Shown: one piece after another, positions 56,584 through 61,718 of the stretch
How positions within the stretch are numbered: position 1 is the stretch's first letter
Layout of the letters: every line of letters begins with the position of its first letter
Notes under the pieces: generated by a model
What the model saw: only the letters and a program-made list of their open reading frames with translations
Database searches by the model: none
What the model was told of the DNA's origin: nothing
Made by a program: the position numbers and the translations under genes
Source of the DNA: a virus
Length of the DNA: 64,000 bases
Virus record (IMG/VR): IMGVR_UViG_3300026088_000013
Direction: 5' to 3' (one strand)

Positions 56584-56596
56584 ATTAGGAGTTTTG

Positions 56597-56723
56597 TTCT
56601 TGCAGCGGCCCCGTTGTAGTAGTCCAGACACCATGAAGGAGAGAGGGCATCGGCACCGCTGCAAGAAAATATATAATTTATGTTTTGTTTTTATTTTTCA
56701 TGGTTCATATTCGACTACTACAA
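56597..56723 (-). ncRNA. Candidate structured RNA/leader
   Basis: Perfect 12 bp inverted repeat 56597-56608/56656-56667 and perfect 11 bp inverted repeat 56614-56624/56713-56723. Confidence 0.55.
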
Positions 56724-56752
56724 GGCTAAGATAAGCACTATTCCGGATTAAC

Positions 56753-56760
56753 CAAATTTA
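56753..56760 (-). promoter_or_regulatory. -7 element upstream of structured leader
   Basis: TAAATTTG on - strand. Confidence 0.5.
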
Positions 56761-56763
56761 TTT

Positions 56764-57282
56764 TTACGAATATTCGATGTTTTCGCCCCAACAAAGAATC
56801 TGGCCACGAAATTCTTTGGGTTTATCAAAGTTAGGCATAAGCCAATACATCATATCCTCCACCGAAAGTCCGTCGTTTCTGGCAAGCTCTTCCACTTCGT
56901 GATCTTCCATCCAATATTTTCCGTTGATTGAGTATACCCCGTTTAAATCCATTTCAAAATTCCAAATCTTTTTAATCTGAATAGGTGGTGCAAACTGTAT
57001 TTGTTTACTTGTATATGGTTTTCCAGACCACACACGCGGACTAAACCAATCGCCAACTTTCCATCGGTTTCCTCTACGAATGGTATGATATTTAGGCCAT
57101 ATGGTATCTGTTTTTAATTGGCTAACAGCTAGATCACATTCAGGAAGTTTTCTATAATATTCATCTTCCATCTCAATTCCTTCTACGGCAATATATTCCC
57201 ATATCTTTTCAACGAAATAAGTTGGCTGTCCCTTGCGTGGATGTTTTGCAGGAAAATTTCTACTAAAAGTTATCACCTTCAT
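56764..57282 (-). CDS. ASCH/PUA-like domain protein
   Basis: FVEKI...KYHTIRRG.RWKVGD...RVWSGKPY. Confidence 0.55.
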   Translation of the reverse strand: MKVITFSRNFPAKHPRKGQPTYFVEKIWEYIAVEGIEMEDEYYRKLPECDLAVSQLKTDTIWPKYHTIRRGNRWKVGDWFSPRVWSGKPYTSKQIQFAPPIQIKKIWNFEMDLNGVYSINGKYWMEDHEVEELARNDGLSVEDMMYWLMPNFDKPKEFRGQILCWGENIEYS

Positions 57283-58479: not shown

Positions 58480-59937
58480 TTAATCATTTATTGGTTTCCA
58501 ATTTTGTTGCGAATGTTGAGGAGTATAAACCTCCACATAATTATCACTAAAAAACATAGTTGGGCCTGTAAACCTCATTGCAACGTGCTTAGTAGAACCG
58601 TGTCTATTTTTTGCAATATTCCCTATGCATAGTCCTAAAGGGTGATATTCTGTTTCTCCGATTTGCACAGGTTCGGTCATATGATAATATTCCGGACGCA
58701 TTAAAAAAACAACCTCATCAGCGTCTTGTTCTATACCGCCTGATTCTCTTAAATCGCTTAATTGGGGCATTTTGTCAGGACGTGATTCTACGGCTCGACT
58801 TAATTGACTTAGGGCTATAACTGGAATTTCCAATTCCTTTGCGATACATTTTAATGCGCGACTTATATCAGATACGATTTGTTCTCGATTTTTTCCTTTA
58901 GTGTCTGTACCATTCATTAGTTGAATGTAATCAACTACAAGATATTTAATCCCATGTTTTTTTTTAAGTAGGGCACACCGGGTTCGAATATCTCTTACAT
59001 TAATGCTCGTTTTATCCTCTATAAAAATAGGGCAAGCAGAAATTTTATCCACGCTTGCACCTAAAATTAAATCTTGCTCTTTTGATGTTGTTCCATTTCT
59101 GATTTGTTCGTGAGGTATCCCGCTGTCAATAGATGCTAATCTCCTCATAAGTTGCACACCATCCATTTCTAAAGAAAACCATGCACAAGGAATATTGTTT
59201 TTTACTGATGTATTGTAAGTTATGGATAATGCGCAAGCCGTTTTACCTTGTCCCGGCCTTGCGGCAAGTATAATTAAATCCGGCGCAACCAATCCACAGA
59301 TAGTTTTATCTAATGCCGTGAGGCCAGTTTTAATGCCCAATACACCGGTTTCTTTTACGGATGCATGTTGTTCCAATACTTTCATGCCATAATAGGCCAT
59401 ATCCCTAGTAGTGCCTCCCAATACCCGTTCCTGAATGTTCTGTAATGCGGTATCGGTATCTCTGATTATATCAAATGCATCCGTTGAATCTTCGTAGGCT
59501 TCGGCCAAAGCAGTTTGGCAAGTTTGGATTGTTTCCCGCTTCAAATACATTTCAGAAATGATAAGTATATGGGATTCGATATTAGCACCGCTTACTACTG
59601 AATTAGTTATTCTTACTACGGCATAAGGGCCACCTACTATTTCAAGATTACTATCTTTTTTTAGTTGCTCTATTACGACGCCTATATCAATGGGATGATT
59701 CCTATCATATATTTTTTGAATAGCAGAAAATATTCTTTGATGAGAATCCAAATAAAACATTTCTGGAAAGACACGGGACATACAGGTGGTTACACAGTTA
59801 GCATCTAACATAAGAGCCCCTAAAATAACTTCTTCAATATCTTTTGCTTGTGGAGGAATTTTCCCGTAAATCAATGTTGAAAGATCAATCCCATTTCGGC
59901 GCTTATTTCGGTCTTTATTCAAATTAGTTAAGTCCAT
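58480..59937 (-). CDS. dnaB: Replicative DNA helicase
   Basis: PPQAKDIEE.ILGAL; AARPGQGKT; FSLEM; VVDYIQLM; LSQLSR; SDLRESGGIEQDAD; AKNRHG. Confidence 0.97.
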   Translation of the reverse strand: MDLTNLNKDRNKRRNGIDLSTLIYGKIPPQAKDIEEVILGALMLDANCVTTCMSRVFPEMFYLDSHQRIFSAIQKIYDRNHPIDIGVVIEQLKKDSNLEIVGGPYAVVRITNSVVSGANIESHILIISEMYLKRETIQTCQTALAEAYEDSTDAFDIIRDTDTALQNIQERVLGGTTRDMAYYGMKVLEQHASVKETGVLGIKTGLTALDKTICGLVAPDLIILAARPGQGKTACALSITYNTSVKNNIPCAWFSLEMDGVQLMRRLASIDSGIPHEQIRNGTTSKEQDLILGASVDKISACPIFIEDKTSINVRDIRTRCALLKKKHGIKYLVVDYIQLMNGTDTKGKNREQIVSDISRALKCIAKELEIPVIALSQLSRAVESRPDKMPQLSDLRESGGIEQDADEVVFLMRPEYYHMTEPVQIGETEYHPLGLCIGNIAKNRHGSTKHVAMRFTGPTMFFSDNYVEVYTPQHSQQNWKPIND

Positions 59938-60788
59938 TAGCCGTTAAGTTTGAGTTTAATTTTTGTTGGATCTTTTTCTTTTTGAGCTGTAGACATTTTT
60001 TGAACAAGCCGTTGCCACTCCTTAACGGTACTCAAGTCTGTTAAAGAACGAGTAATTAACCAGTCGTCTTTTTTAATAAACTCTATTATTTTATCCCAAC
60101 TTGCCAGCACATCAGGCATTTTACCATTTAGAATTTCTGATTTTTTAAATTTTTTCATACCTCCAATATGATAAGCTATTTGCAAGGCGGCTGAATAATC
60201 GGTCTCTTTGTCGAAGAAATACCCCGGATTTTTATCGGTAAATCTTCTTACCATTTCGACTACTAAATACATAAAAACGTTTTTTTCATTTTCGGCAATC
60301 TTTATACTATTCTTACTCTCTAATTGATCTATAATCCTTAATAGATCTTCATTTTCAACTTCAGGGTTTGCTGCTGGTTTTGCTAGGGCAAATTTTACTA
60401 ATTTTTCTTTCGTTATGGCCCCCCCCTTACTACCTGACTTAGAACGAGTTAAACTAATTTCACCATCCCTTACCATACGTTTTTGAACTAAATAATCCCC
60501 CTCAATAAATAGGCATTTTTCGGCTAAAAGTTCCCCAAGTGCAAGCAAAATAGTATCAAGCGGGTAAGGAAAGTGCCTAGCAAGTTTAGCAGCAAAATCC
60601 TGAATTTGCTGCCCGGTTTGCTTATCTTTTTGCCTAAGCAAAATAGTCCCATATGGGTCTGACTTGTGCATAACGCACATAATTCTTATATATACTCCCG
60701 TTGCTGCCGCCGAACATTCCATTAGTTTTTCATCTGTTAGAAAATCCTGAATATACAAAGGCAGATATGGTTGATCCCTTAAAGCCAT
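59937..60788 (-). CDS. Replication initiator (YdaU/DUF1376-like N-terminus)
   Basis: PYLPLYIQDFL.D....CS....GVYIRIMC; upstream of dnaB. Confidence 0.75.
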   Translation of the reverse strand: MALRDQPYLPLYIQDFLTDEKLMECSAAATGVYIRIMCVMHKSDPYGTILLRQKDKQTGQQIQDFAAKLARHFPYPLDTILLALGELLAEKCLFIEGDYLVQKRMVRDGEISLTRSKSGSKGGAITKEKLVKFALAKPAANPEVENEDLLRIIDQLESKNSIKIAENEKNVFMYLVVEMVRRFTDKNPGYFFDKETDYSAALQIAYHIGGMKKFKKSEILNGKMPDVLASWDKIIEFIKKDDWLITRSLTDLSTVKEWQRLVQKMSTAQKEKDPTKIKLKLNG

Positions 60789-61105
60789 TGAGTATTATAT
60801 TTAGGTTGTATGGACTTGATTAATTCCTTCTCAATAGCCTTAAAATTCTCTTTTTCTAAAAAAAAGAATTGGATGTAGTTGTATGTTTTTTTTAATGCTC
60901 TAAGAACTTCATGTTTTCCATATCTTATCTGTAAATTATTTGAACTTCCCACATATAAAATGTTATGTATTACACTCTTGTCAAAAAGGGTTATATCCGT
61001 ATGAACTAAAAGATAAACGCCTGAAGCGGCCGGAGGAAGTTTAAAATTTCTATCATACGTATTTAGAGTAAACCATTCTTCTGGATTAAATTCAAATTTG
61101 GCCAT
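60779..61105 (-). CDS. GIY-YIG nuclease family protein
   Basis: SGVYLL...YVGSS.NL..R...HE...EKELIK..QPKYN. Confidence 0.85.
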   Translation of the reverse strand: MAKFEFNPEEWFTLNTYDRNFKLPPAASGVYLLVHTDITLFDKSVIHNILYVGSSNNLQIRYGKHEVLRALKKTYNYIQFFFLEKENFKAIEKELIKSIQPKYNTQWL

Positions 61106-61123
61106 TCTAATTGGTTATTGGGC

Positions 61124-61146
61124 AAAAAAACGCCCCTGAAAAGGGC
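61124..61146 (-). terminator. Terminator in leader of replication operon
   Basis: gccctt-ttc-aggggc then g ttttttt on - strand. Confidence 0.55.
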
Positions 61147-61325
61147 TGTGTCGGCAGCGCACTTTAAAGAGGCGAGAAGGTTTTTACTTTCTTCTAAAAG
61201 GAAACCTCATATCAGATCGTCCGACAACGAAAGTGTTATGAGGTTGTAGTAAATCATATACACTAAACTATGAATGATCCTTATCATGGCAAAATCTATT
61301 TTAAATACTTGCCTGTAATCAAGAA

Positions 61326-61718
61326 TTAAAGGATATCCTGCCACTCCATAAGTTCTCCTCCTATATAATCGGAATCTGTCTTTGATTCATACTTATCACA
61401 TTCTAAAGGCATACGTATGGTATCGGGTTCAGTTACAACAGGATGACGCTTTCTTTCTGCTATATAAGAGTACATTTTTTGCCCGGTTAGCTGGCAGGTA
61501 AAAGTGGTGCGGGTTCCGGTGAACTTTATTTCATCCTTGCATCCTTCATATTCCTCCTTCCCTTGGACTAAATTTTTACACATTTGGAAACATAGGTGAT
61601 TATTCGCCGGGTTCTGGCTGCAATACTTTTCGTGTCGGGTAGCATCTCCTTTTCGGAAATGTTTCTTTCCACAATAGTCGCATTTATGTACTGTATAATT
61701 TGGTAGAGGGGTAGGCAT
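61326..61718 (-). CDS. Zinc-finger protein
   Basis: CDYC...HEKYC, C..MC, CQ...C. Confidence 0.7.
   Translation of the reverse strand: MPTPLPNYTVHKCDYCGKKHFRKGDATRHEKYCSQNPANNHLCFQMCKNLVQGKEEYEGCKDEIKFTGTRTTFTCQLTGQKMYSYIAERKRHPVVTEPDTIRMPLECDKYESKTDSDYIGGELMEWQDIL

Follow-up and report, generated by a model that had tools for sequence, protein, structure and literature searches.

What is encoded in the short non-coding gap in front of a viral replication operon, and does its transcript fold into a leader that controls the genes behind it? The question is raised by a gap of 220 nt lying between the gene of a 130-aa protein and a GIY-YIG-type nuclease gene. The gap belongs to the window, i.e., the whole stretch of 64,000 nt of DNA that was analysed, which comes from a 74-kb IMG/VR virus record carrying inverted terminal repeats. 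Positions 1-62747 of the contig of this record correspond to positions 1254-64000 of the window; positions 1-1253 of the window lie outside that stretch and consist of real bases, not N. The original prediction placed in the gap a hairpin whose loop is complementary to a site abutting a terminator, and interpreted this arrangement as attenuation of the DNA replication genes at the RNA level.

The leader (Table 1) is followed by a tightly packed set of genes. The GIY-YIG gene overlaps the start of the initiator-like gene by 10 nt with its 3' end, and the DnaB gene is translationally coupled to the initiator-like gene. DnaB is followed by small genes, an HTH protein and a Dam methylase, the operon reaching approximately position 56764. 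Because the open reading frames overlap or abut and the gene identities fit together, the GIY-YIG/initiator-like/DnaB unit is regarded as one operon. The GIY-YIG protein of the window gives Pfam GIY-YIG matches slightly below the cut-off. Among its homologues the catalytic positions (G-Y/YVGS, R61, E92 and N104) are invariant, and PF01541 is carried by the more distant homologues P0006 and P0007. Homologues of the initiator-like protein show weak PHROG matches to primosomal protein (5/8) and replisome organizer (4/8). On the upstream side of the gap, the N-terminus of the 130-aa protein gives a short zinc-finger-like match (DUF7128, E 0.004), and the protein also matches phrog_12523. Its position may be compared to that of lambda Q ahead of PR'-tR'; no homologue of it was found beside the other leaders examined.

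The minus-strand genes within 64000-47000 have no Shine-Dalgarno sequence, and their upstream regions are A-rich or A/U-rich. Absence of the Shine-Dalgarno sequence and A-rich upstream regions are typical of Bacteroidota and their phages. The label "Bacteroidota-type" is used here on account of the missing Shine-Dalgarno sequences and the promoter box. Searching cultured phages by tblastn with the initiator-like protein and DnaB gave nothing useful as a clue to the host. The TAGATTTTG region, situated approximately 45 nt before the first hairpin, is like the Bacteroidota -33/-7 consensus with one T too many; the window leader has no exact TAnnTTTG box, this near-match being the only one. From this resemblance we infer that the promoter is used in the window. 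Among the related leaders described below, the exact TAnnTTTG box (mostly TATATTTG) was found in 19/39 independent leaders vs. 4.2 expected; the homologous leaders L137/L150 have it unchanged. Another leader of the window, Leader B (56584-56760, minus strand), opens with TATATATTTTCTTGCAG, which is similar to the promoter/start region TATAT(T)TGCAG found in L121, L132 and L137. Judging by this resemblance, the next transcription unit seems to start with the same type of promoter.

Table 1. Elements of the leader and adjoining genes in the window, and loop pairs of related leaders (upstream element / loop of the start-proximal hairpin).
Feature	Position	Strand	Description
130-aa protein	61326-61718	-	function unassigned; adjoins the leader gap on its upstream side
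Promoter-like region	61290-61322	-	TTG 61322-61320, 21-nt spacer, TAGATTTTG 61298-61290
Mini-ORF MIYYNLITLSLSDDLI	61207-61257	-	16 codons; ATG 61257, TGA 61207; spans H1
Hairpin H1	61203-61245	-	9-bp outer stem, 2-bp and 4-5-bp inner stems, hexaloop
H1 outer stem	61245-61237 with 61211-61203	-	AACCUCAUA with UAUGAGGUU
H1 inner stem	61230-61227 with 61220-61217	-	UCGU with ACGA
H1 hexaloop	61226-61221	-	UGUCGG
Linker H1-H2	61175-61202	-	28 nt, purine/A-rich; weak 5-bp hairpin within it in the MFE fold
Hairpin H2 (predicted terminator stem)	61131-61174	-	16 bp, small internal loops; G+C-rich base CGCCUCU/AGGGGCG; MFE fold CGCCUCU..AAAG.G.GCUG[CCGACA]CAGC.C.CUUU..AGGGGCG
H2 apical hexaloop	61154-61149	-	CCGACA; fully complementary to the H1 loop
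U7 tract	61124-61130	-	immediately 3' of H2; putative intrinsic terminator tail
GIY-YIG-type nuclease domain protein	60779-61105	-	108 aa; first gene past the leader
Initiator-like / replisome-organiser-like protein	59937-60788	-	283 aa; N-terminal 140 aa highly conserved
DnaB-type replicative helicase	58480-59937	-	PF03796 5e-84, PF00772 5e-25
Leaders L121/L135/L143			GUGGAAG / CUUCCAC
Leader L130			GGUCUGAC / GUCAGACC
Leader L137			CUUCUCAC / GUGAGAAG
Leader L142			GUGGUAC / GUACCAC
Leaders L149/L152			GUAAGGAG / CUCCUUAC
Leaders L150/L156			CGUUCCAC / GUGGAACG
Leader L210			CGGCAC / GUGCCG
Leaders L183/L187			UGCCAUG / CAUGGCA
Leader L180			UGUGCAA / UUGCACA

Reading the minus strand, the predicted hairpin (H1) with its outer and inner stems, the loop UGUCGG and the hexamer CCGACA were all found where they had been placed. 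The energy of H1 is -15.9 kcal/mol, or -13.9 kcal/mol if the hexaloop is kept open. The minimum free energy (MFE) fold of the intergenic region retains H1 (z = -3.15), and 0/200 shuffles fold equally well. The short GCCC...GGGC hairpin with its U7 was also present as predicted, and a promoter/terminator scan independently flagged it as a terminator-like site. The position of CCGACA relative to the terminator had to be revised. According to the fold, the hexamer does not abut the terminator: a longer terminator hairpin of 16 bp (H2) has it as its apical loop. The energy of H2 is -19.1 kcal/mol vs. -6.8 kcal/mol for the short hairpin, and the same U7 ends both. The AUG of the GIY-YIG gene is located 18 nt past the U-tract, which agrees with the earlier placement of a terminator-like hairpin in front of the GIY-YIG/initiator-like/DnaB operon. 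Folded as the minus-strand transcript, H2 is more stable than on the plus strand (-22.4 vs. -15.8) owing to a U.G pair. The leader structure is specific to the minus-strand transcript, since the U.G pair and the U-tract occur there only; the minus strand is also the one that codes for the operon.

The loops of the two hairpins complement each other at 6/6 positions, both hexaloops being used in full. In the ensemble, both loops are at least 98% unpaired, with the exception of a U.G closing pair in H1, and a duplex of the six loop pairs would have about -7.8 kcal/mol. H1 and H2 are predicted to form a kissing complex in which the stems remain intact. Approximately 170 Å long when extended, the 28-nt linker would be sufficient in such a model for the tips of H1 and H2 to meet in cis.

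How readily such a match arises by chance depends on the test applied. In the apical-loop test, complementarity to all 6 nt of the H2 loop within the 80 nt upstream of that hairpin had a shuffle p of 0.016, and 1/22 of the non-cognate upstream regions matched the window H2 loop equally well. A loose test, which accepted any kissing pair with k>=6 between presentable hairpins in 200 nt, found such a pair in 22/200 shuffles (11%, p ~0.1). This last result speaks for a reading in which an ordinary terminator stands beside an inverted repeat unconnected with it (a DNA-level operator or an element of an origin), and the 6-nt match is coincidental. Replication origins are often located near initiator genes, which was also counted in its favour. 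A strict scan for kissing-hairpin pairs gives less room to coincidence: across both strands of the 64-kb window (128 kb), 7 such pairs were revealed, and H1/H2 was the sole one of them with both hexaloops fully paired. The same scan listed a 7-bp pair, GUUUCGG/CCGAAAC, at 956-1091 of the window (minus strand) in a non-coding C-rich/G-rich region. A match of GTTGTCGG/CCGACAAC to Leader A was considered as a sign of cross-talk between the two leaders and dismissed; 23/100 shuffles share an 8-mer of this kind, which is not significant, and the copy in Leader A is merely part of a stem there. Taken by itself, the window leader makes the kiss suggestive, and comparison with the sequences of other leaders makes it solid.

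No DNA homologue of the window leader was found in cultured phages (blastn), in IMG/VR and JGI loci (blastn and nhmmer) or in stretches of DNA analysed earlier. The 14-mer of the H1 apex gave chance matches only in IMG/VR, and the scan of genome contigs for homologues yielded a single irrelevant Verrucomicrobiota match. With Rfam 15, 0 matches were obtained in the window and 0 in 11 analogue loci; the region 60600-61500 gave noise only (E>=0.3, far under the gathering thresholds). The Cobalamin, C4 and group I intron families of Rfam have no match at the leader, and, for want of any Rfam signal, the idea that the GIY-YIG reading frame lies in a group I intron or a ribozyme was rejected. In the literature searched, full-text queries on kissing loops together with phage leaders or terminators returned nothing describing such an element. 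The window leader is a sequence-unique member of an uncatalogued leader class that is not in Rfam.

Since the window leader is without a DNA homologue, the genes downstream of it were used as bait. The GIY-YIG homologues (A1) gave 21 loci and the initiator N-terminal domain (A2) 80 more. The module of the window is orthologous to the modules behind the analogous leaders. In front of these orthologous GIY-YIG/initiator modules, one architecture recurs on many IMG/VR and JGI contigs: a promoter box, an upstream element and a U-tailed hairpin whose apical loop pairs with the element, the letters being unrelated between lineages. In most related leaders, 5-30 nt separate the end of the start-proximal hairpin from the start codon, and a U-rich stretch follows the hairpin. 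The kisses of the analogues comprise 6-9 bp, and the partner is usually the loop of a first hairpin (Table 1). In some leaders of GIY-YIG orthologues (the L123 family, the L162 family and L138), a single-stranded 5' segment takes the place of the H1 loop and pairs with the terminator-like hairpin in its apical region; L162 has two pairing segments, one of 8 bp and one of 7 bp.

The statistics cover those independent leaders, 23 in all, whose start-proximal hairpin is strong. The apical-loop test gave p<=0.05 in 8/23 of them (binomial P ~1e-5, Fisher P=1.6e-8), and cognate upstream regions outscored non-cognate ones (P=0.001). The detectors retained were local presentation, the apical-loop test and the cognate/non-cognate test; those based on contiguous stems only, on MFE loops only or on constrained global folds were discarded as too crude or permissive.

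Covariation was found in two groups of these leaders. The leaders L137 and L150/L156 can be aligned from the promoter box through the terminator; L137 precedes a GIY-YIG gene, and L150/L156 directly precede the initiator. Their 8-bp kiss is paired in all the sequences, with both partners altered at three pairs between L137 and L150. In the L123 family, represented by five distinct sequences (alignment A4, consisting of L123-L129 and L139), a 5' segment and the apical region of the terminator-like hairpin form a 9-bp pseudoknot with three double and two single compensatory changes. This pseudoknot is 99.3% paired, with 0/500 shuffles as good and slid controls at <=46%. The covariation evidence comes from these related leaders (L137/L150 and the L123 family), not from the six pairs of the window leader itself. 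Because related phages keep the design with different letters, the kissing-loop leader is, on comparative grounds, a real control element. The loop-target pairing proposed for the window is borne out as one case of a design that recurs and covaries among the leaders of orthologous genes. The coincidental, DNA-level reading is regarded as highly improbable in view of this recurrence in independent leaders, together with the full use of both hexaloops; the strand asymmetry of the U.G pair and the U-tract suits RNA better than duplex DNA.

The comparison of loci also changes the place of the nuclease in this arrangement. GIY-YIG was found in 16/80 initiator loci (L142-L221), and two of the 16 genes are decayed (L167 and L169, remnants of 16 and 51 residues). 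Where the gene is present, it ends 4-10 nt within the start of the next gene. In most loci the overlap is 10 nt and falls at the near-invariant initiator start (MALRDQPYLPLY...); in the L123 group it is 4 nt, and the downstream protein is not detectably similar to the initiator. As far as the sequences tell, this overlap and sporadic spread is the pattern of a free-standing homing-type nuclease, and it suggests the conserved 5' end of the initiator gene as the target. The nuclease cassettes appear to have been inserted behind the leader. The leader itself is part of the replication operon rather than of the nuclease cassette, because it is also found directly before the initiator without any nuclease (L149, L150). 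In the original prediction the terminator stood ahead of GIY-YIG, initiator and dnaB; of these, GIY-YIG is an optional passenger, homologous leaders standing directly before the initiator in phages that do not have it. The existence of such leaders without a nuclease likewise led to rejection of the leader as a guide or partner RNA of the enzyme. A near-perfect inverted repeat of ~30 bp, with arms ~110 nt apart, was observed in locus L002 (2160-2330), ~660 nt upstream of an initiator homologue without GIY-YIG. It is unlike the kissing leaders and could be an origin or operator.

The reading preferred here, considered moderately probable, is that of a kiss-organised terminator which throttles or gates the replication operon, read-through being low or conditional. 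Transcription, probably from the Bacteroidota-type promoter, would yield H1 first. After the 28-nt spacer, the G+C-based H2 with U7 would follow as an intrinsic terminator, leaving 18 nt to the first start codon. The loop of H1 would then pair with that of H2, both stems remaining intact, and the leader would close as a compact kissing complex. Most likely, the kiss would pre-organise and stabilise the terminator hairpin and the released ~165-nt leader RNA. Most transcripts would stop at this point; a set fraction, or those rescued by a factor, would reach the nuclease and replication genes. A stabilising effect of the kiss is expected because the pairing is compatible with the terminator hairpin. 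By its sequence context, such a terminator could be promoter-proximal if the non-canonical box is real, and intercistronic otherwise. The sequences establish the features themselves, the predicted fold, the recurrence of the design and, in related phages, covariation of the tertiary pairing; that the promoter is used, that transcripts do stop and which way the kiss acts are what we infer in this scheme.

The RNA-level control assumed by the original prediction stays reasonable as gating, since the pairing recurs and covaries and a strong terminator-like hairpin precedes the operon. Several points weigh against the kiss-organised terminator. Termination at ~61124 is known as a model prediction only, and the six base pairs are modestly improbable (p from 0.016 to 0.1, depending on the test). 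With 44 nt and internal loops, H2 exceeds the typical length of an intrinsic terminator. Moreover, efficient termination would demand a read-through route for essential replication genes.

One part of the original claim that found no support is attenuation in the classical sense. The kiss touches neither arm of the terminator, short or long, in the window or in any analogue. As the loop is used and the arms never are, the kiss is not a mutually exclusive antiterminator, and this candidate was dismissed. A kinetic form of antitermination may still be imagined, in which the H1 loop captures the emerging CCGACA and blocks the terminator, turning the operon on, and masking of H1 by a ribosome, RNA or protein turns it off. 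The pairing partner is transcribed ahead of the 3' arm of the terminator, which makes a kinetic effect conceivable, and in the window the mini-ORF spans H1. This switch is nevertheless rather unlikely, given that mutually exclusive pairing is absent and that the nearest studied kiss stabilises the hairpin it engages, promoting the terminator in a repressing riboswitch (PMC10327014). Nor is the mini-ORF conserved: other kissing leaders have uORFs elsewhere or none at all. The 16-codon frame is present where the original prediction had it, and is judged incidental, because the place and presence of uORFs vary among kissing leaders. A leader-peptide attenuator of the trp/his type was excluded for the same reason and because no alternative helix uses the paired site. 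The mini-ORF was also considered as a type I toxin and rejected, 16 residues being too short for a membrane helix and the frame not being conserved.

The kissing leader might also act after transcription, as protection from nucleases, as a processing site or as a means of tuning ribosome access to the start 18 nt further on, the U-run then being part of an A/U-rich initiation region. The genes here lack Shine-Dalgarno sequences and have A/U-rich upstream regions, which fits such a role. In several relatives H1 begins 5-9 nt from the promoter box, like 5' stabiliser hairpins, and the fold of the L123 family additionally pairs the start codon. In the window fold, however, neither the start codon nor the preceding 18 nt are paired. 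The U7 of the window, as well as UUUUUUAU and UUUCUUUUUU, directly follow a G+C-rich stem base and are classic terminator signatures. A post-transcriptional role is therefore held to be unlikely.

Since a loop and its complement occur together in each leader, pairing between leader molecules is possible. A trans-acting leader RNA similar to the CI RNA of phage P4 could be supposed on this ground: terminated leaders would pair with nascent ones, and termination would depend on genome dosage. Pairing in cis is, however, kinetically favoured, Rfam shows no match of C4/CI type, accumulation of the leader is hypothetical, and the 8-mer shared with Leader A is not above the shuffled level. These points make the trans-acting reading quite improbable. 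Equally conjectural, and given very little credence, is the extension to a self-addressed sensor of replication dosage, in which terminated leaders released from each genome copy would bind, in trans, those still being transcribed that bear the same address, and so set read-through into the initiator and helicase genes. If true, it would be the sense-strand equivalent of copy control by countertranscripts in plasmids, the lineage-specific loop letters serving as incompatibility codes.

Returning to the kiss-organised terminator, its significance lies in its position. The kissing leader fronts the replication genes of many uncultured Bacteroidota-type phages and also optional nuclease cassettes. 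If the kiss sets read-through, it would provide a simple mutational handle on the timing of phage replication, as well as a clean natural system for studying the effects of tertiary contacts on intrinsic termination. It would also explain a sporadic GIY-YIG gene riding on a tightly throttled transcript.

The layout has counterparts in several known systems. In the PR' - 6S RNA - tR' region of phage lambda, a promoter is followed by a strong terminator, and a short leader RNA results unless Q licenses read-through. The window leader would share this promoter-then-terminator layout; the lambda region is without kissing loops, and its promoter has to contain an element bound by Q. No protein resembling Q was identified here.

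In phage T4, an internal terminator limits the transcripts of the free-standing homing endonuclease gene mobE (PMC2790892). As proposed for the window, an intrinsic terminator restrains a small optional nuclease gene beside a conserved gene of DNA metabolism. Compared to the T4 case, the GIY-YIG gene of the window module is sporadic (16/80) and always abuts the initiator gene at its invariant 5' end. The T4 elements differ in being single hairpins without a loop-loop partner, whereas leaders of the window type exist also without the nuclease (L149, L150). In phage P4, RNA-RNA pairing (CI RNA, seqA/seqC) in an untranslated leader stops transcription before the replication genes (PMC4825925). 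P4 immunity is similar to the role proposed for the window leader, i.e., RNA-level control of a replication operon through pairing in the leader. Unlike the window leader, P4 relies on a processed antisense factor with two target sites that serves lysogenic immunity, and the CI RNA has no likeness to the window leader in sequence or in Rfam.

The corrinoid riboswitch has the most similar contact. Its L5-L13 kiss stabilises a downstream regulatory hairpin and promotes a terminator or an RBS-hairpin, switching expression off (PMC10327014). In both the riboswitch and the window leader, the kiss joins an upstream loop to the apical loop of a regulatory hairpin further down the same 5' leader. The riboswitch differs in having a large ligand-binding aptamer and conserved loop letters, UCCCG, and its P13 is separate from the terminator (PMC10327014). 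The window leader has a plain H1 without a conserved core, its loop letters vary with the lineage, and the kissed hairpin is the predicted terminator itself. No ligand is implied for it, and it has no Rfam Cobalamin match. Leaders ended by a terminator and kissing loops that steer regulatory hairpins are each already known. What is absent from Rfam, and was not found in the literature searched, is a ligand-free leader of two hairpins, in which the first loop addresses the terminator's own loop and the address is rewritten in each lineage.
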